From a virus: 64,000 nt of DNA. A model generated the notes under the pieces. That model saw nothing but the letters and a program-made list of their open reading frames with translations, was not told the origin of the DNA and did not search any database. The position numbers and the translations under genes were made by a program. The DNA lies in the IMG/VR virus record IMGVR_UViG_3300007351_000003, positions 4,022-68,021 of that record; one strand, given 5' to 3'. This document shows positions 31,938 to 63,654 of this stretch, piece by piece (within the stretch, counting starts at the first letter, position 1; each line of letters begins with the position of its first letter).

Positions 31938-32328
31938 AGAACCTCGCCCAACCATCGTATCGACGGGTCGCAAGAACCACGCCCGTCATCCGGGTGTTCT
32001 CTGCCCGCAAGGTGCATGCGGCTAATAGCTACAAAATATAATCATGCCGTGATCGAAATCTGCTTTTAGCGCATCGAGCAAGCTACACTTACGACACGCG
32101 CCGCATGGTTCGGGATAAAAGCGATTCGAGCGGGCAGAGAACGGGGGCGAGTTGAGAACCTGTCCCCTCGGCTCAGGATTATGAGCTGGACATGTTTCTG
32201 GTTCAAGGCCGTCTATGCATCCAGAAAATAATAGTTTCCCGCAGTTTATATTATGGCATTCGCTCATACTCCCGATCCTCTTCGCCCCGATCCACCGCAA
32301 CTTTTACATTTCACCCAAACACTCATGG

Positions 32329-32790
32329 TTATTCCTCCTTATTCTCAGCGGCAAACTGTTCTTTCGTTTTTCCAAAGTGCTTTTCTGCGCACGGAAGGCA
32401 AAACCAGAAGGAGCAATACAAGCACTTGTACGCATTCGCCATTGAAACTTTACGACCGCATTGTTGGTGATCTTTACCGCTCAACCTTGCGGGGTGCGTT
32501 CCCTGGCAGGTCACATAGTCAGTAAATTCCGTGTCCATTCCGGTCCCGGTGATGGACTTGGTGCGCAGCTTCTCGACCTCGATGCACTGAACTTGATAGC
32601 GTTTTAGTACGGTCTGCTGTGATATTGGCAAGTTGCCTCCCTGACTAACCAGTCGTTCGTGTGGGATGCTTCGCACCCCACAACTCAGCGTTATCGTCCT
32701 ACTATCTCGCCCAAATTGGTCATTTCTTCGATTGACCATGCCGATTTTATAGTCGGCTGCATTGATGATTTCTTTGTGTATGAGGACCAT
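32329..32790 (-). CDS. Hypothetical protein with C-terminal zinc finger
   Basis: CGRKV...YKCLYCSFWFCLPCAEKHF. Confidence 0.5.
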   Translation of the reverse strand: MVLIHKEIINAADYKIGMVNRRNDQFGRDSRTITLSCGVRSIPHERLVSQGGNLPISQQTVLKRYQVQCIEVEKLRTKSITGTGMDTEFTDYVTCQGTHPARLSGKDHQQCGRKVSMANAYKCLYCSFWFCLPCAEKHFGKTKEQFAAENKEE

Positions 32791-41271: not shown

Positions 41272-44262
41272 CTATGCGTGGGCATAAACCGCATGATTGG
41301 CGTAATTTGCCTTCACCAGTGCTGCCGCGATCCCTGGGCATACCGAATTACCGCACAGTCTTACCTGTGCTGTTTTGGTGAATGGCTTACCGTGCATATC
41401 GTGCTCGATAATATAGGTGTCGTAGAATCCCTGAGCACGGAATATTTCGCGTGGCGCGAGCATGCGGAGACCTATATCAATGATTTGGTAGTCTTCCCCG
41501 TGGACCTTTACTAAACCGAAACGATCTCTTGTTGAAATTGTATTAATTGGCTTCCGTATGTCATGGGATTCACTGGCTGCATGGTATTGCAAGAGGAATG
41601 CCCGGACTTCTCCGAAGTGAAGGCCGCCAGCCGTGATTGTCTGCAGCGGTTCACGTGAGTCCTGACCGATATTCGTACCCTTGAGCTTAACCAAGTGTGA
41701 CGTTACAAGGCTGTCTTTGTCACGTTGAGTAACCGTCCGCACTGGTTCGTCGGCAGCATATCCTATGCTCGATCCCATGTATCGAACAAGACTCGCGGCT
41801 ACCAGGGAATGATGGTCTACTGACGTGACCGTGCCGAGCGGCATTTCAACCTGCGAGCCCACGACTCCGCCGTAGTGTTTGGCGAGGAAGGCAGAAACGA
41901 GGGCATGCCTTTGAGTTGCGGTAATTGTTGGTAGTGGATCATCGACAGGATGGCAACGGTCCTCGTCACCTTTTGAAGAATAGAGTGAAGACAAAACAGG
42001 AGATACCAGCGCCAGCTCTCCCCGGTGCGCAGCGGTTATCGTCGGAAATGGGTCTTTAATATCATTGGTCCTATCGCCTCCCTGATGGGTCAGTGGAATA
42101 AGATGTGGCATGACGAGTGCGCTGTCTGCCTTTGCCGTAACCGTTGCAACAGGTTCCTCTATATGCCTCGGCCTTGACTGTCCTGCCCGTCCGCCAACTC
42201 CTATTATATGGGGCGCAACGAGCGCAAAGTGTCCGCCCTTTGTCTCCGCACAGATAGTTCTGAGCGGTTCATCAATGGGCATAGAACGCGGCGATGATCC
42301 GTTGGCGTGCTCAGTAATATACGGGACTACCAGTCCGTGCCGGTTCTCCGTAGTTTGCGTTGCCAGCGGATCGCCAACAGATTGCCCGCGGAACTCTCCG
42401 CCCTTATCGCCATAGTACGTCACGATAAACGGCTCAGTCGAATCTGTGACATACCGCTTAATACCCATGGCAATGCGGCGTTGCGTGGCTTCGGCCAGCG
42501 GTTTCTTGCGCTCGAATATAGACGGCGCGGGAATATCCCATTGGATGCACTCGGCCGCAGTTCTCCAAGGCAGGAGTTTTCCACTCTTTACGGCTGCGCT
42601 TTTCGGGTCACCATGTGTCGGCTCGGGCCACACAATAGGCTGTCCGTCTGAGCGGGCAATGAGAAAGAGACGCTTCCGGATGGTCGGGTCGCCATAATCA
42701 CAAGCCCTGAGCATTTTATGGTCAACTTCGTAACCATTTTTACGGAGGGCATTGAGAAACGAACGGAAGGTTCGGCCCTTGCGTTTCGGACACGGGTACT
42801 GCTTGCCGTCCGTTTTGGTGATCAGCGGTCCCCAAGTGATGAATTCCTCGACGTTCTCGAGCATGATTACCCGTGGTTTTACCGTAGCAGCCCAGCGGAG
42901 AACTACCCAGGCAAGCCCACGGATCTTCTTACTGACAGGTTTCGTGCCCTTGGCCTTAGAGAAATGTTTGCAATTATGAACGACAATACCTTCAACAATG
43001 TAGCTTTCATCGTCCTCGACGCCAATATTAAAAACATCGGTTTCAACAACTGCGGGTTCCTGGCTACGAATAGGACACCACTCAAGGCCACTCTCGGCAA
43101 TAGTTTGACTATGACCATCAACAATATTTTCTCGCCATCGAAGCAGGTAAATTGGCCTCGCGTTGACAATTCGGCCTTGAATTTCATTGCTGTTTTGTAA
43201 AAGATGAACTGTGACTGTTTTCCCAAGAGAATTCAGGAGGGCTTTGATTCCGAAAGCGAGGTGTTTGGATACCGTGCGGCATTCGGTAAATTGTTTTCCT
43301 GCCCATCCATCCGCAGAAAGGTATCCGTCAAGCAAAGACTGTTTAAAGGCTGGTCCGATACCGAGTGCCCAAGCTGGAATTCGTTTTGACTCGGCCCTGT
43401 GCCCAAAGTGTTCTCGTAACCATTCCACTAAACCACGGTGGTTTGTACTGAATTGATATGCTGTACCAGTCTCCCGCTCGTGCCACGCCAACTCATTAAA
43501 ACCGGCACGTTCTCCTTCACGCATCCATGTGTTGATTGTCTGGCGAAGTTTTTCTACCTCATGCTTACCGCAGGTGAGAACCAATTCAGCGCGTGTATCT
43601 GTGAGGCGTGTCCAGCCGTCTCCAAGGTAACGACCAACAAGCCACATAAAGCGGTTGTCTGCAACCATGCCGCGACCCAACACAGGAGGTATTGTTGACG
43701 CCGGGAAGGTCGTAGGAGTTGCCCAATACCACCCTTTTGTGAGAAGCGATGCTGGTGCCCAGCCAGCGTCTCCCAGAACACGCCCATATCCTCGAGGTTC
43801 GGTACACCATACGCTTTTACGATGACGAACATAGAATGGATGCTCAGGACTCACAAGTAACCCGGGATGCCCATGTCCCTTAATTGACATCAACGGCTTG
43901 CGTGTATGAGATACCTCTGTTACCCGTCCCCAACGCAGTTTATGTGTGAGTACTTCATCGCCAACTTCGATTTCTTCAATGGCTTGATAGCCCCGGCGCG
44001 TGAGTACCAGTGTTCCTGCCGGGAAACAGTCCGGGCTGAACCATGCCAGGCCGACGGGCCTGCCGGCGCATTCAACCATCGGGTTGACTTTCCACACGTC
44101 TTCCCGGAGATGCTTTGTGAACGGGTGATTTACCTGATGCATCCGGATCGCGTCCGCATCGTGGTTTACAGCGATATCGATCGGGCGCCCAAGGGCCCGC
44201 TCTATCCCCGTTGATGCTCCGCCGCCGCCCGCAAAATTATCGACTACGATTTCTCCTGTCAT
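41272..44262 (-). CDS. C5 cytosine DNA methyltransferase interrupted by an intein
   Basis: DNFAGGGG motif I; SPD|C motif IV; LENVEEF; RKRLFLIAR; CGNSV; EPLxTIT repeats. Confidence 0.93.
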   Translation of the reverse strand: MTGEIVVDNFAGGGGASTGIERALGRPIDIAVNHDADAIRMHQVNHPFTKHLREDVWKVNPMVECAGRPVGLAWFSPDCFPAGTLVLTRRGYQAIEEIEVGDEVLTHKLRWGRVTEVSHTRKPLMSIKGHGHPGLLVSPEHPFYVRHRKSVWCTEPRGYGRVLGDAGWAPASLLTKGWYWATPTTFPASTIPPVLGRGMVADNRFMWLVGRYLGDGWTRLTDTRAELVLTCGKHEVEKLRQTINTWMREGERAGFNELAWHERETGTAYQFSTNHRGLVEWLREHFGHRAESKRIPAWALGIGPAFKQSLLDGYLSADGWAGKQFTECRTVSKHLAFGIKALLNSLGKTVTVHLLQNSNEIQGRIVNARPIYLLRWRENIVDGHSQTIAESGLEWCPIRSQEPAVVETDVFNIGVEDDESYIVEGIVVHNCKHFSKAKGTKPVSKKIRGLAWVVLRWAATVKPRVIMLENVEEFITWGPLITKTDGKQYPCPKRKGRTFRSFLNALRKNGYEVDHKMLRACDYGDPTIRKRLFLIARSDGQPIVWPEPTHGDPKSAAVKSGKLLPWRTAAECIQWDIPAPSIFERKKPLAEATQRRIAMGIKRYVTDSTEPFIVTYYGDKGGEFRGQSVGDPLATQTTENRHGLVVPYITEHANGSSPRSMPIDEPLRTICAETKGGHFALVAPHIIGVGGRAGQSRPRHIEEPVATVTAKADSALVMPHLIPLTHQGGDRTNDIKDPFPTITAAHRGELALVSPVLSSLYSSKGDEDRCHPVDDPLPTITATQRHALVSAFLAKHYGGVVGSQVEMPLGTVTSVDHHSLVAASLVRYMGSSIGYAADEPVRTVTQRDKDSLVTSHLVKLKGTNIGQDSREPLQTITAGGLHFGEVRAFLLQYHAASESHDIRKPINTISTRDRFGLVKVHGEDYQIIDIGLRMLAPREIFRAQGFYDTYIIEHDMHGKPFTKTAQVRLCGNSVCPGIAAALVKANYANHAVYAHA
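42973..44028 (-). mobile_element. Intein (352 aa) with LAGLIDADG homing endonuclease
   Basis: CFPAGTLV start, IVVHN end, +1 Cys; GRYLGDG and DGYLSADG motifs. Confidence 0.92.
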
Positions 44263-46852: not shown

Positions 46853-47269
46853 TTATTTTTCTTTTGCCATCTGCATGAGTCGCGCAGCTACAACGACCTC
46901 ATCAACTTGGTATCGTTTCGCAAAAAATGACACAACATCCGGTCGATCCTTGTATTTTTCCCAGTCGGGAAGAAACAGGCTATCCGGCATCAGTAAGTGC
47001 AGCGCAAATTCATTCGCTTCTTTCTCGTCTCGATCTTCTAGTATCGTGGTCATATTTACCCTTGTTATCGTGTCTTGCGCTCGCTTATTCCATAGCCCAA
47101 TCGCGCCTCTGCGTGATTTCTTCGGATAAGTACGAACTAGGCATTTTAGGCATTCGATCTGCCACCATTTATGATTGACCATCGTGCTTTCATAGTTATC
47201 AACCCGCGCTTTACCGCCGCAGAATGGACACGATAACAAAACGGTCGAATCAGATTTCGCTTTGCTCAA
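46853..47269 (-). CDS. Lar-family zinc finger fused to an ImmA/IrrE-like C-terminal fragment
   Basis: CPFCGG...CLKC...AIGLWNKR, then EKEANEFALHLLMP. Confidence 0.7.
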   Translation of the reverse strand: MSKAKSDSTVLLSCPFCGGKARVDNYESTMVNHKWWQIECLKCLVRTYPKKSRRGAIGLWNKRAQDTITRVNMTTILEDRDEKEANEFALHLLMPDSLFLPDWEKYKDRPDVVSFFAKRYQVDEVVVAARLMQMAKEK

Positions 47270-47290
47270 CTGTTCACCTCCACGTTGGTG
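47231..47290. repeat. attC-like site
   Basis: CGATAAC...GGT[C]GAA/TTCACC...GTTGGTG, 60 bp. Confidence 0.8.
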
Positions 47291-47310
47291 CGGCGCTTCG
47301 CGCCGGAAAC

Positions 47311-47456
47311 CTTTTACGTCTGGGCGGGCTGGTAGGGACTTTCGGTTCTGCCACCATCACCCGACGATCGGGAGTCCTCCCGGCGAAGGGATTCTCATCC
47401 ACGGTACGGTATCGTTTTAGCGACAGCCGCCGCCAGTTCCCGCCCAGACGTAAAAG
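47311..47456 (-). ncRNA. 146-nt structured RNA candidate, copy 1 (strand assumed from operon direction)
   Basis: 18-bp closing stem and internal hairpins; 139/146 identical to 63489-63634. Confidence 0.65.
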
Positions 47457-47539
47457 CTTTTTATATTAAGCGCCGCACCAATGGGGCCGTTAAGTCGTGA
47501 CCGGCAAGCATTGGTTGATGCGTCGCACACTACGCGCCG

Positions 47540-47604
47540 CACCAACCAAGCCGTTCAAGACCGACCGCCCCTAACGGGGCGGCGACTTAACGGCCCCATT
47601 AAAT
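47540..47604. repeat. attC-like site (ATT variant)
   Basis: GCACCAAC...GTT[C]AAG/CTTAAC...ATTAAAT. Confidence 0.8.
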
Positions 47605-48045
47605 TTCTTCATGCCTCACGAAGACGGCGGTTGATAGTTCCAACCTCCGCAAAACTGAGACAAGCATCACTACTTCGGCGCTCTTGTTCGCAGCGGTATA
47701 CGTTGCCTCTTTTGCCGTTCGCACTTGTTTATCGTATAACTCAAGCAAGCCCCACGAGTCAGGCAATTCATCGGGCTTGACGAGTTTCGCGGGAACTAGA
47801 AAATAACGGTGATCCCCCATACCGCGCTCTTGTTCCCGGCGAAATATTTTATTCTTATCCGAGAGAAAATCTGCTCTCGATGCCTTGCACTCCACAAGGA
47901 TGCTAGCTCCACCAGAAGCATAGAAGCCTATCGCGTCTGGAGTTTCGGTGTTGTGTGTAGTGGCAAGTTCGGCCAAAATGATTGTGCAACGCCGATTATT
48001 TGCAAGCCATGCCTGAGCTTTTTTGACCAACTCTTTATGAGTCAA
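47599..48045 (-). CDS. PD-(D/E)XK nuclease-like (MmcB-related) cassette gene
   Basis: ETPDAIGF...LVECKASRADF. Confidence 0.7.
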   Translation of the reverse strand: MTHKELVKKAQAWLANNRRCTIILAELATTHNTETPDAIGFYASGGASILVECKASRADFLSDKNKIFRREQERGMGDHRYFLVPAKLVKPDELPDSWGLLELYDKQVRTAKEATYTAANKSAEVVMLVSVLRRLELSTAVFVRHEEI

Positions 48046-48058
48046 ACCGACCTCTGAA

Positions 48059-48115
48059 ATTTAACCAGTCAGTCCAGCCGTCCAAAAAGGACGGCAGCTG
48101 ACTTCTGCGTTATGG
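48059..48115. repeat. attC-like site
   Basis: ATTTAAC...AGT[C]CAG/CTGACT...GTTATGG, 57 bp. Confidence 0.8.
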
Positions 48116-48322
48116 TTCCAACCTCTTCATGAATTCTGCATTGCCATCCTCATGGCACCTGCTGCAGATATATCTTTTTGTCTTGATCGTCTTGTATGCC
48201 CTCGGTGCCTTATCTCGTGGCGGGTATGTGGTGCGGTTATCTGTATTGAATGCCTCTATGCCGAGGAATATCAATCCAAGAGTGAGAGCGATGCTGACTA
48301 TTGTGAGTCCGGGATTGGCCAT
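48110..48322 (-). CDS. Small membrane-anchored protein
   Basis: N-terminal TM, CSRCH; stop lies in the attC TAAC. Confidence 0.55.
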   Translation of the reverse strand: MANPGLTIVSIALTLGLIFLGIEAFNTDNRTTYPPRDKAPRAYKTIKTKRYICSRCHEDGNAEFMKRLEP

Positions 48323-49130: not shown

Positions 49131-49209
49131 ATTGTACTTTAGTACAAGTTAAAAGTCAACATAAAATTGTACTATAGTTTATTGACGTAGCTTTGAGGAT
49201 GCATATAAT
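49131..49209. promoter_or_regulatory. OR region: PR (minus), PRM (plus) and two operators
   Basis: PR TTGACT-N17-TACAAT (49159 to 49131); PRM TTGACG-N16-TATAAT (49182-49209); operators 49132-49147 and 49167-49182. Confidence 0.85.
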
Positions 49210-49215
49210 GAATGG

Positions 49216-49506
49216 ATGGAGAACTCCATGAAGGTTTTAGGGCGGCATATAAGAGCTTTGCGTAAATCCAGAGGATTAAAGGCAAAAGACATTGCAGAAC
49301 GTGCCAATTTGACACCTACTTATATAAGCAGGGTAGAAAACGGGAGAGTTGATGGCGTTTCGGTCGAGGTAATCATGAGGATCGCCCAAGCCATGTCTGT
49401 ACCCACGGCAGCTTTGTTTAAAGACGATGAGATCGTGGAAGAATTAATAAAACATGCGGAACTAATGAAGAAATTTTTTAAGGAAGAAGGCAAAAAAGAC
49501 AAATAA
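49216..49506 (+). CDS. XRE-family HTH repressor (cI position, no peptidase domain)
   Basis: IRALRKSRGL..KDIAERANLTPTYISRVENG. Confidence 0.85.
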   Translation: MENSMKVLGRHIRALRKSRGLKAKDIAERANLTPTYISRVENGRVDGVSVEVIMRIAQAMSVPTAALFKDDEIVEELIKHAELMKKFFKEEGKKDK

Positions 49507-51599: not shown

Positions 51600-51668
51600 A
51601 AGCGTGACCGCTGGAATGCTTGCGTAACTCGCAGGCGTAGCCAGTCGAAGTTGACGCGATTGTTACGA
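51594..51668. repeat. Degenerate attC-like site
   Basis: Imperfect hairpin ending TTGACGCGATT-GTT; left AAC lost. Confidence 0.45.
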
Positions 51669-51702: not shown

Positions 51703-51840
51703 ATGGACGAAAAAGTTTACGATCTTTCATTAGAAGATATCAGACCATTGATTGACCTACCTGCCGAATATGAATTGGTTCGCGCAGATAGCAACGGAAA
51801 CGGAACAGGCGTGATTGTCAAACTGGTCAAGCGATCATAA
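51703..51840 (+). CDS. 45-aa cassette-like ORF (not in ORF track)
   Basis: MDEKVYDLSLEDIRPL...; flanks GTTATGATT / GATCATAAT pair. Confidence 0.5.
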   Translation: MDEKVYDLSLEDIRPLIDLPAEYELVRADSNGNGTGVIVKLVKRS

Positions 51841-51894
51841 TGCGGCGGTAAGCCTCGGCACGCGAAGCGACGGGTTCGACCCGTTTGGTTAAGA
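51835..51894. repeat. Degenerate attC-like site
   Basis: TCATAAT-GCGGCGGTAAGCCTCGGC...GTTAAGA; left arm resembles 62609. Confidence 0.55.
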
Positions 51895-51915: not shown

Positions 51916-52224
51916 ATGCCAAGAAAATTATCTGAACCCGTTATGCGATACGCGAATGCCATGCAATTGAAATTGAACAAAAACGCGCACAAAGGCGGCT
52001 GGATTCGCTATGACAATCGGGGCCGACGAATATGGGCTCCTGAAGACGTGCGTTTTTTGCTCAACAAACTTAAAGAAGAGCACGACGAACTGATTGCAGA
52101 GGTGGAAAAGTATTTGTCTAATCCATGCATGTATCAAGGGAACAATCTGCTGAAAGAAGCTGCGGATAATGGAAATATTTCGATGATGCTTGCGGATGTA
52201 TGTAGGCAATTGAAAAAAGTATAA
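51916..52224 (+). CDS. MazG-like nucleotide pyrophosphatase-fold protein
   Basis: KLKEEHDEL...EAADNGNISMML; stop in TAAC. Confidence 0.55.
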   Translation: MPRKLSEPVMRYANAMQLKLNKNAHKGGWIRYDNRGRRIWAPEDVRFLLNKLKEEHDELIAEVEKYLSNPCMYQGNNLLKEAADNGNISMMLADVCRQLKKV

Positions 52225-52276
52225 CGCGCCGGATGAACGGCGCAGCGGAAGCGGAATGTCGGTCCGCTGGTTGAAA
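52219..52276. repeat. Degenerate attC-like site
   Basis: GTATAAC...CTG-GTTGAAA, 58 bp. Confidence 0.5.
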
Positions 52277-60821: not shown

Positions 60822-61073
60822 ATGAGTAACGAGCAGCCGCAAAAAGTAGTGAATACTCTCCCGGCCGAGGGCCTTTGTCGACTCAGGCAGATCATAGGAT
60901 ACAGGGATAAAGATTCTGGTGAATGGGTGCCAGGCTTCCTTGCTATCAAAAAAAGTGCATGGTATCGGGGGATCATAGAAGGCAAATACCCGAAGCCTGC
61001 AAAGAAGTTTGGCACTCGCTGCACTTTATGGGATGTTGATGATATCAGGAAGCTGAAAGAAAAGGCATCGTAA
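60822..61073 (+). CDS. alpA: AlpA-family excisionase/regulator
   Basis: LCRLRQII...IKKSAWYRGI.EGKYPKP.KFG.RCTLW. Confidence 0.85.
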   Translation: MSNEQPQKVVNTLPAEGLCRLRQIIGYRDKDSGEWVPGFLAIKKSAWYRGIIEGKYPKPAKKFGTRCTLWDVDDIRKLKEKAS

Positions 61074-61126
61074 TGCGATACTGACCCCTGCTACTTTAGC
61101 GTGGGTGTCGAGCACTCTGGTTAGTT
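61068..61126. repeat. attC-like site (AAT variant)
   Basis: CT-GAC-CCC pairs with GGG-[T]-GTC-[G]-AG; ends GTTAGTT. Confidence 0.75.
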
Positions 61127-61614: not shown

Positions 61615-61677
61615 TTTTAACGCGGCGCTGACCTGCCGCAGCGAAGCGGAGGCCAGTGTCGAGCGTCCTGGTTAGAA
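61615..61677. repeat. attC-like site
   Basis: GCT-GAC-CTG pairs with CAG-[T]-GTC-[G]-AGC. Confidence 0.85.
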
Positions 61678-61680
61678 TTT

Positions 61681-62306: not shown

Positions 62307-62365
62307 TTCCAACGCTTGCGTCAACCGCGAGCGAAGCGTAGACGGTTTGGACGCAATTGTTATGC
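62307..62365. repeat. attC-like site (59 bp)
   Basis: TTGCGT-C-AACCG pairs with CGGTT-[T]-G-[G]-ACGCAA. Confidence 0.85.
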
Positions 62366-62608: not shown

Positions 62609-62672
62609 GCATAATGCGGCAGTTAAGCCTCGGCCCCGTCAGGGGCCGAAGGTCTTGAACTCCTGGTTCTCT
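62609..62672. repeat. attC-like site (AAT variant)
   Basis: GTT-AAG-CC pairs with GG-[T]-CTT-[G]-AAC. Confidence 0.85.
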
Positions 62673-62776
62673 CAGCGCTGATTTATAGCGCGTTTTGAGA
62701 AGGAGTTCAGGCTTAACTGCCGCATTCCCTCAGCGCGGCTCATGTAAAAGGCTTTAAGCTGAAAGGAGATTACACA

Positions 62777-62945: not shown

Positions 62946-63002
62946 AGGGAACCCGACAAAATGAGGGGTGCGGAGCATCCCGCTCGATTTTAATGGTTAG
63001 CC
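62946..63002. repeat. attC-like site
   Basis: AAAAT-GAG-GGG pairs with CCC-[G]-CTC-[G]-ATTTT. Confidence 0.8.
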
Positions 63003-63035: not shown

Positions 63036-63350
63036 ATGAGTTGGGGAGAAAGAAGCTGCAAGCGGCCTTGTCGTTGTCCTCAGAAATGTAAAATGGAAAC
63101 GTGTAATGTTGATTGTTCCTCGTATGAATGGGATGGTGTGACAAAACCAGATTCGGCGTCAAAAATAATGAAATATTGGCCTTGTGAATGTCCTTTTATC
63201 GTGGGGCAGAATAGGTGTCAAGTTCATGATGCTGAAGCTACATGGATAATGTTCGATACGCCATTACGGGGTTATGACAACCAGAGAGTACAGGAGGCCC
63301 TTAAATCACTGGAAGAGCTGTGCAGGTCGGGCAAGAAGTTAAGCGGCTAA
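63036..63350 (+). CDS. Cassette gene: Cys-rich hypothetical protein
   Basis: 104 aa; stop in TAAC. Confidence 0.6.
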   Translation: MSWGERSCKRPCRCPQKCKMETCNVDCSSYEWDGVTKPDSASKIMKYWPCECPFIVGQNRCQVHDAEATWIMFDTPLRGYDNQRVQEALKSLEELCRSGKKLSG

Positions 63351-63405
63351 CCCCGGGGCTAAGCCATCGCCCGTAGGGCGATTGGTTTTGAACTCCTGGT
63401 TGATA
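63345..63405. repeat. attC-like site
   Basis: GGCTAAC...ATCGCCC-GTA-GGGCGAT...TT[G]AACTCCTG-GTT. Confidence 0.8.
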
Positions 63406-63488
63406 CGGCGCGTAGCTTGCGCCGTGCCAACCGATTAGAGACTTCAGCGGCTCAAGGCCCCCATTGGTGCGGCGCTTAATATAAAAAG

Positions 63489-63634
63489 CTTTTACGTCTG
63501 GTCGGGAACTGGCGGCGGCTGTCGCTAAAACGATACCGTACCGTGAATGCGAATCCCTTCGCCGGGAGGACTTCCGATCGTCGGGTGATGGTGACAGAAC
63601 CGAAAGTCCCTACCAGCCAGACCAGACGTAAAAG
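63489..63634 (+). ncRNA. 146-nt structured RNA candidate, copy 2
   Basis: Inverted copy of 47311-47456 with a compensatory G-C to U-A change in the closing stem. Confidence 0.65.
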
Positions 63635-63654
63635 GTTTCCGGCGCGAAGCGCCG

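Follow-up and report, generated by a model that had tools for sequence, protein, structure and literature searches.

Three probable integron-type gene cassettes form a CALIN-like array in an early operon of a phage lacking its own integron integrase

The 83,217-bp IMG/VR virus record IMGVR_UViG_3300007351_000003 was analysed over its bases 4022-68021, a stretch of 64,000 nucleotides hereafter called the window, whose numbering is used for all features of this phage. On the minus strand, positions 47065-48109 probably consist of three integron-type gene cassettes (C1 to C3) that make up a CALIN-like array (cluster of attC sites lacking an integron integrase) in a phage without an integron integrase of its own. 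Three attC-like sites (S1 to S3) lie here within 885 nt of each other, a density that corresponds to the definition of a CALIN (at least two attC sites within 4 kb and no intI nearby); the intI gene, attI site and Pc promoter that stand beside the array of a complete integron are missing. The mechanism is shown up to the borders of the cassettes; the recombining enzyme is what we infer beyond them.

The borders follow from a rule that relates each site to the next. Complementary cassette ends are the classical signature of cutting at G/TT (AA/C on the sense strand here, the slash marking the cut), and complementarity between the start of a cassette and the start of its attC is the classical way of defining the crossover point. 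A sequence-only reading of this DNA had pointed to three flank pairs matching at 13/13, 9/10 and 11/11 positions, all of which were present in our repeat search: 47284-47296 pairs with 47534-47546 (13/13), 47062-47074 with 47227-47239 (13/13, the earlier version being its 11-nt core) and 47599-47607 with 48056-48064 (9/9, the tenth position, the T at 47598, being assigned to the next unit by the crossover logic). Counted from the base following the G of GTT, the 3' box of S1 forms 9 bp with the 5' half of S2 and 3 bp with its own adjacent 5' half, that of S2 forms 12 bp with the 5' half of S3 and 2 bp with its own, and that of S3 forms 10 bp with a half-site at 47064 and 2 bp with its own. Over the whole genome this strand has ~6,400 AA positions; among them, the top partner of each box is the 5' half of the next site, the S2 box being tied between this partner and a paralogous copy at 47471-47483. 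Perfect inverted repeats of at least 13 nt, 120-3000 nt apart, number 17 in the 83 kb as against ~3.6 expected; since a few such repeats arise by chance, a single 13-mer is not decisive.

The flank rule holds and defines three units on the minus strand. C1 (48109-47599) runs from the first C of S1 to the end of GAAATTTAA and carries an MmcB-like PD-(D/E)XK nuclease ORF (open reading frame; 47599-48045). C2 (47598-47285) comprises the S2 centre, a GTTG...CAAC hairpin, a linker and a non-coding structured RNA, and ends after GCGCCGCACCAA. C3 (47284-47065) holds the S3 centre and the coding part of a Lar-like zinc finger (residues 1-68 of the ORF at 46853-47269), ending after GACACGATAA. Beyond this distal junction lies a remnant of the backbone (46853-47064), in which the reading frame of Lar continues into the C-terminal half of an ImmA/IrrE metalloprotease. 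No partner for the 5' half of S1 was found nearby, so that the array begins at S1 and leaves out the 70-aa and 49-aa ORFs transcribed before it.

All three sites lie on the minus strand. Their geometry shares with validated attC bottom strands the AAC, an unpaired spacer of 5-6 nt, three pairs, a bulged G, three pairs, a bulged T or A, more pairs, a variable loop and the GTT, and in all three sites the extrahelical bases are confined to the 3' arm (sense strand), a placement also seen in the validated bottom strands. S1 (48059-48115) is composed of a 5' box CCATAA/C, which overlaps the TAA stop codon of the upstream 70-aa ORF, an L' box, a variable loop, an L'' box with a bulged G and the 3' box GTTAAATTTC; its L boxes read AGTCAGCTG and CGG-CTG[G]ACT (bulged bases in brackets), and as single-stranded DNA (ssDNA) it folds at -14 kcal/mol (z -4.6). 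S2 (47540-47604) has the 5' box ATTTAA/T, L' GTTAAG, a GC-rich loop hairpin, L'' GG[T]CTT[G]AAC and the 3' box GTTGGTGCGGCGC; it folds at -18.3 kcal/mol (z -4.4) and is 82% identical to 62612-62660 in the other arm of the genome. S3 (47231-47290) has the 5' box CACCAA/C, a spacer GTGGAG that doubles as a Shine-Dalgarno sequence, L' GTGAAC, a 20-nt loop containing a TTG start codon, L'' G[A]TTC[G]AC and the 3' box GTTATCGTGTC. The AAC...GTT outer boxes are thus present in S1 (CATAAC...GTTAAAT) and S3 (CACCAAC...GTTATCG), and the L boxes of S2 and S3 resemble those of Vibrio (CC[T]CTT[A]AAT) and of phage TJE1 (CCTT[G]AAC).

Two covariance models were searched against the window. The first, R1, was trained solely on real attC bottom strands, namely four assayed phage sites (Qi 2023 Table S3, PMC9892861, located in the TJE1 and P12002L genomes; three of the four recombined with IntI1) and nine chromosomal-integron sites from the Vibrio phage MK672802, in an alignment with the R-box and L-box pairs imposed; it was run with filters off. 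It returned 11 full-length matches in the window, S1, S2 and S3 among them and all three on the minus (sense) strand: S3 (47231-47290) at 15.1 bits (E 0.54), S1 (48059-48115) at 13.7 bits and S2 (47541-47603) at 11.1 bits. The highest control scores were 12.1 bits in 76 kb of unrelated phage loci, 13.0 bits in 96 kb of random bacterial loci and 12.9 bits in 81 kb of loci having one gene in common with the phage. S1 and S3 hence score above every hit in the 253 kb of controls (maximum 13.0) and S2 falls inside the control range; a TJE1 attC outside the training set, as a positive control, reached 27.6 bits. A simple regular-expression grammar for attC was also tried and discarded as too unspecific (35 hits).

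The second model, R2, was built from 12 sites on four contigs that carry homologues of the C1 nuclease (L272, L275, L278 and L280), with none from the phage itself and with the S1 homologue excluded. In its alignment 95% of cells are paired, compared with 75% in shuffles and 29-48% with the partner slid, and seven of the nine L-box pairs show a compensatory change. R2 gave 29.3 bits for S1 (E 4.5e-4) and 26.6 bits for S3 (E 1.8e-3), its only hit in 96 kb of control DNA being at 11.5 bits. Reciprocally, its top three matches in 90 kb of TJE1 and Vibrio phage DNA were the three TJE1 attCs, on the bottom strand and at 26.7-31.6 bits, a range in which S1 and S3 also score; two of the three recombined with IntI1 (Qi 2023, PMC9892861). 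The full-length matches of both models start at 47231, 47540/47541 and 48059, precisely where the sequence-only reading had placed its attC-like sites; as a claim about attC, that reading is supported for S1 and S3 and left marginal for S2.

R2 finds 13 sites in the window, S1-S3 and ten others; those below 49 kb are without exception on the minus strand and those above 51 kb without exception on the plus strand, and there are more attC-like sites outside the window. At each of the 13 sites, and throughout the related contigs, it is the sense strand that the bottom-strand models match; since the attC-like bottom strand is the sense strand, the site of each cassette lies upstream of its gene, and in S3 and its counterpart on contig L271 the start codon is inside the loop. 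If replication starts between the two arms, the strand proposed to recombine may be the lagging-strand template in both. Outside the two arrays, attC-like sites lie at 31946-32002 and 32643-32696 (minus) and at 51611-51668, 51835-51894 and 52219-52276 (plus), all on the local sense strand, the one at 32643 being the top R1 match of the window (27.5 bits). Elsewhere in the other arm, the site centres 61618-61680, 62954-62999 and 62325-62363 are 90-94% identical to sites on L275, a contig from Hainich groundwater, where they adjoin unrelated genes; the joints are better kept than the genes they part. The map of sites in both arms fits the earlier proposal that the cassette system works genome-wide and not at a single locus, where "works" would have to be understood as deduced from footprints of past exchange.

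Such footprints are found around the cargo, whose announced composition (nuclease, structured RNA and Lar-like zinc finger) agrees with profile matches, folding z-scores and PF14354, respectively. The 148-aa protein of C1 is a member of phrog_631. Across 19 aligned homologues D37, E52 and K54 do not vary, the profile of the family matches PDB 3dnx (E 8e-6) and three of the 19 homologues match PF06319 (MmcB-like), which together identify it as a PD-(D/E)XK protein. Homologues are numerous, and those at 79-87% amino acid identity are on three contig groups, L272/L273, L275-L277 and L278-L280, which have sense-strand attC-like sites directly before and after the gene (R1 up to 34.3 bits) and gene neighbours that are unlike from one group to the next. 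In every group, BLASTN homology to the nuclease unit starts at 48065-48078 and ends at 47599, at AA/. The centre of S1 is common to the L278-L280 group, all three contigs of which have a site homologous to S1 before the nuclease gene; other upstream site centres stand beside the nuclease in L272 and L275. A homologue on L274 is in an ordinary context of overlapping genes without attC-like sites.

The Lar unit of C3 behaves likewise. Residues 10-64 of the 138-aa ORF are a Lar_restr_allev domain (PF14354, E 4e-10), and the remainder, which covers only positions 63-123 of the PF06114 profile, is an ImmA/IrrE peptidase reduced to its C-terminal half; the N-terminal half was found nowhere in the genome. 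The one close relative of the Lar part, P0002 (82 aa, 88% identity), is on the 2-kb contig L271, with a sense-strand site before the gene (462-581, R1 21.4 bits) and another after it. DNA homology (47248-47064 to L271 564-744) stops at AAC, and the L-box pairs of the two copies differ by two double changes, i.e. by covariation. The neighbours are a 74-aa gene and a terminase-proximal block in L271 as against the RNA unit and the ImmA remnant in the window. The L271 ORF stops at a TAA inside the box CGATAA/C. The window copy (47064-47100, compared with L271:700-746) has four extra bases (AAGCGAGCGCAAGAC versus AAGCGCAAGAC in L271), which put this stop out of frame so that Lar runs on into the ImmA remnant as a 138-aa fusion. 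Nuclease and Lar units thus occur in other phage contigs with different neighbours and with breaks at the predicted crossover bases, and the content of the array is not invariant. No syntenic relative covering this arm was found, nor any locus related through the 277-aa neighbour; the 12 loci related through a 312-aa protein have that one gene alone in common and are without attC-like arrays, and a blastn search of INPHARED with the 5.4-kb region gave no relatives.

The cargo of C2 is non-coding. Relative to shuffles, the fold of the intergenic region 47270-47600 has a z-score of -10.8 (plus strand) or -8.6 (minus strand), and scans of the 330-nt structured region by gathering threshold and by E-value returned noise hits alone, hence no Rfam family. 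The RNA core (146 nt, 47311-47456) has two closing stems, one of 18 bp and an outer one of 14 bp. A second copy in the other arm (63376-63654) is 88% identical overall, with a block of ~96% (47487-47291 to 63454-63654) whose edges are A/TTGGTGCGGCGC and GCGCCG. An exact 20-mer from the RNA had zero hits in viral or metagenome contigs, and the 14-mer TTGAACTCCTGGTT had scattered chance hits alone in genome and viral contigs, some of the hit loci having served as controls. The paralogous stem of the other arm (62613-62630 with 62709-62726) also pairs at 18/18; its arms differ from those near S2 at four positions, and because all four differences are compensated the 18-bp stem is taken to be under selection in its own right. 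In both arms the 18-bp stem encloses the 3' half of an attC-like site. The stems could be a target of the RNase III type or a lock on the attC fold, and the flank complementarity of C2 may partly serve RNA structure.

The genes around the array are on the minus strand and form a leftward early operon that starts from a promoter-like site at 49131-49159 (TTGACT-17-TACAAT). A divergent plus-strand site lies at 49182-49209 (TTGACG-16-TATAAT), and a gene resembling helix-turn-helix repressors (49216-49506) adjoins this back-to-back pair; 49131-49209 is likely the switch region that drives transcription of the minus arm. In the order of transcription, the operon comprises the 49-aa ORF and the 70-aa ORF (48110-48322), the 148-aa nuclease (47599-48045), a 330-nt gap without a convincing ORF, the 138-aa ORF (46853-47269) and then a 119-aa protein, the 277-aa protein, a dNMP kinase and a 996-aa Dcm-type methylase. 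To judge by its translation, the methylase ORF (41272-44262) may carry an intein-like insert, with a CF...HNC block between methylase motifs.

We propose that each cassette has an attC-like hairpin site at its start and, at its end, the left half of the outer stem of the next site. Circular excision of one cassette would rebuild one whole site, and the complementarity of the unit ends would follow from this restoration. The folded single strand would be the substrate of a tyrosine recombinase that cuts the 5' box between AA and C and inserts, deletes or swaps whole units, the cargo being accessory early genes (an MmcB-like nuclease, a structured RNA and a Lar-type restriction-alleviation domain). 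An IntI supplied in trans by the host would be the most likely enzyme. In the 83-kb genome TIGR02249, the IntI model, finds nothing, and searches for a Y1 transposase, a serine recombinase or a small Xer-like gene in the phage found none. Its sole PF00589 protein is a 453-aa tyrosine integrase of the P4 type (Arm-DNA-bind_3, Phage_int_M, Phage_integrase) encoded 17 kb from the array on the minus strand (record 68059-69420, i.e. window coordinates 64038-65399, just right of the window), flanked by parts of the plus-arm arrays and adjacent to a xis-like gene. Most of the named homologues of this integrase come from Syntrophales, other 'Deltaproteobacteria'/Desulfobacterota and Nitrospirota metagenome-assembled genomes, which suggests where the host lineage may lie. 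In a relative, L281 (4149-6090; integrase 79% identical), the xis/AlpA-like gene and int are ~250 nt apart with a single attC-like site (R2 23.7 bits) at the stop codon of the former; here the same xis-like gene (60845-61076) and int (64039-65478) are 3 kb apart with the plus-arm cassette array between them. We hold it possible, with slightly more doubt than confidence, that phages of groundwater and sediment anaerobes (probably Syntrophales) share their own pool of attC cassettes of reversed polarity, with the mRNA strand as the recombinogenic strand, and that arrays grow from single resident sites behind backbone genes, shuffling anti-defence genes and non-coding RNAs through a host IntI or an unrecognised enzyme.

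We note that several observations weigh against an array of integron cassettes. No recombinase for the attC-like sites was found in the phage, and the polarity is opposite to the canonical one, in which the ORF is on the attC top strand and the attC downstream of the gene. The E-values of single sites under R1, a small home-made model and not that of IntegronFinder, are 0.5-5. S2 is the least convincing of the sites: its R2 score (13.7 bits, E 1.4) is barely above noise, its outer boxes (AAT...GTTGGTG) are one base off the AAC rule, it appears to be a chimera with a 5' part like the site at 62612 and a 3' part like the site at 63345, and its attC-type fold is outcompeted by the perfect long-range 18-bp stem between 47583-47600 and 47480-47497. 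The fold of S3 as ssDNA is weak (-5 kcal/mol, z +0.8), and the site overlaps a ribosome-binding site and start codon; the best external site is likewise a weak ssDNA fold. The edges of the RNA copies are not cleanly at AA/C, and the differing upstream centres in L272 and L275 imply that exchange has not always taken place at one fixed point. Neither R1 nor R2 finds an attC-like centre after the last AA/C at 47064. That bare AAC junction could be explained by integrase-mediated insertion outside att sites; deletion of a resident site together with the N-terminal half of ImmA would give the same picture.

An alternative that we regard as possible but unlikely is that the architecture is as described and the enzyme is something other than IntI. 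The sites would then belong to a phage-specific integron-like system whose recombinase, from related phages, has been lost here or is an unrecognised protein, and their likeness to attC would reflect shared ancestry or convergence. The reversal of polarity relative to integrons, uniform in every contig examined, and a cassette pool common to phage-like contigs and not to recognisable bacterial integrons are what one would expect of such a system. The only tyrosine recombinase of the genome is, however, an arm-binding integrase of the P4 type beside a xis-like gene, the other candidate enzymes looked for were not found, and the sites here and the TJE1 attCs are mutually recognisable, two of the latter being recombined by IntI1.

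A still smaller likelihood is given to the hairpins and their flanking complements acting in RNA, as processing or stabilising signals of the RNase III type in the early transcript, with the modules exchanged by ordinary or illegitimate recombination at conserved joints. The sites lie on the transcribed sense strand throughout both divergent arms, S2 and its paralogue have perfect 18-bp stems held by four compensatory changes, the RNA cargo is closed by stems of 18 and 14 bp, and a ribosome-binding site and start codon are inside S3, all of which would suit such a role. Yet homology breaks at the AA/C and GTT box bases and not at variable points, and validated attC bottom strands have the same bulge geometry (3 bp, G, 3 bp, T/A, at least 3 bp), unpaired spacers and AAC...GTT boxes. 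The box sequence is moreover unique to each unit, so that homologous recombination between joints would not yield the flank rule. No site is terminator-like, and a reading of the sites as terminators was rejected. That the repeats are chance matches or ordinary intergenic phage palindromes without a common function is scarcely credible: a few inverted repeats of 13-14 nt are to be expected elsewhere in the genome and single-site R1 E-values are near 1, but the top genome-wide partner is the predicted neighbouring site in three cases out of three, model scores exceed those of the controls, and sites recur beside homologous genes on other contigs.

The integron-type cassette reading can be set beside systems already described. 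A survey of phage CALINs reported 17 cases of 2-4 sites each (Qi, Rajabal, Ghaly, Tetu, Gillings 2023, PMC9892861), and our literature search found no other primary report. Common to those arrays and the present one are rows of single-gene units parted by attC sites without intI, and a cargo that includes anti-restriction functions. TJE1 and present sites recognise each other by covariance model, and TJE1_attC1 agrees almost letter for letter in the L'' box CTT[G]AAC, the 5-nt spacer and the GTT. In TJE1 the genes are on the attC top strand, whereas here and in the related groundwater contigs they are on the bottom-strand side. Where the published arrays have 2-4 predicted sites, the window has at least 13, spread over its two divergent early arms and predicted from sequence, and a non-coding RNA is among the cargoes. 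With the sedentary chromosomal integron of the Vibrio type (phage Va_90-11-286_p16, MK672802) the array shares AAC...GTT boxes, unpaired spacers, an L box in which 3 bp separate two bulged bases (CC[T]CTT[A]AAT versus GG[T]CTT[G]AAC here) and a cassette start complementary to the start of its own attC. It differs in the absence of intI, attI and Pc, in shorter sites (57-65 nt versus ~128 nt), in heterogeneous centres and in reversed gene polarity. Integrase-mediated insertion of cassettes outside att sites, as described in a preprint (bioRxiv 10.1101/2022.09.11.507474), could account for the distal end at 47064, where the last cassette meets a truncated ImmA-like gene at a bare AAC. The one survey of phage CALINs in print (PMC9892861) describes neither the reversed polarity nor an RNA as cargo. 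So understood, the array is a further example of a phage CALIN, set apart by these two features, by its occurrence in both early arms and by comparative breakpoints exact to the base.

If this reading is correct, the accessory early genes of the phage would be modular parts that can be swapped by site-specific recombination at hairpins; the mosaicism of phage genomes is usually ascribed to illegitimate recombination. Integron-type sites would also be tied to a counter-defence cargo in phages (the Lar domain and the nuclease, with a Dcm methylase encoded nearby), and S1 and S3 would provide concrete substrates with which to ask whether integron integrases act on phage DNA in lineages other than the well-studied Proteobacteria.

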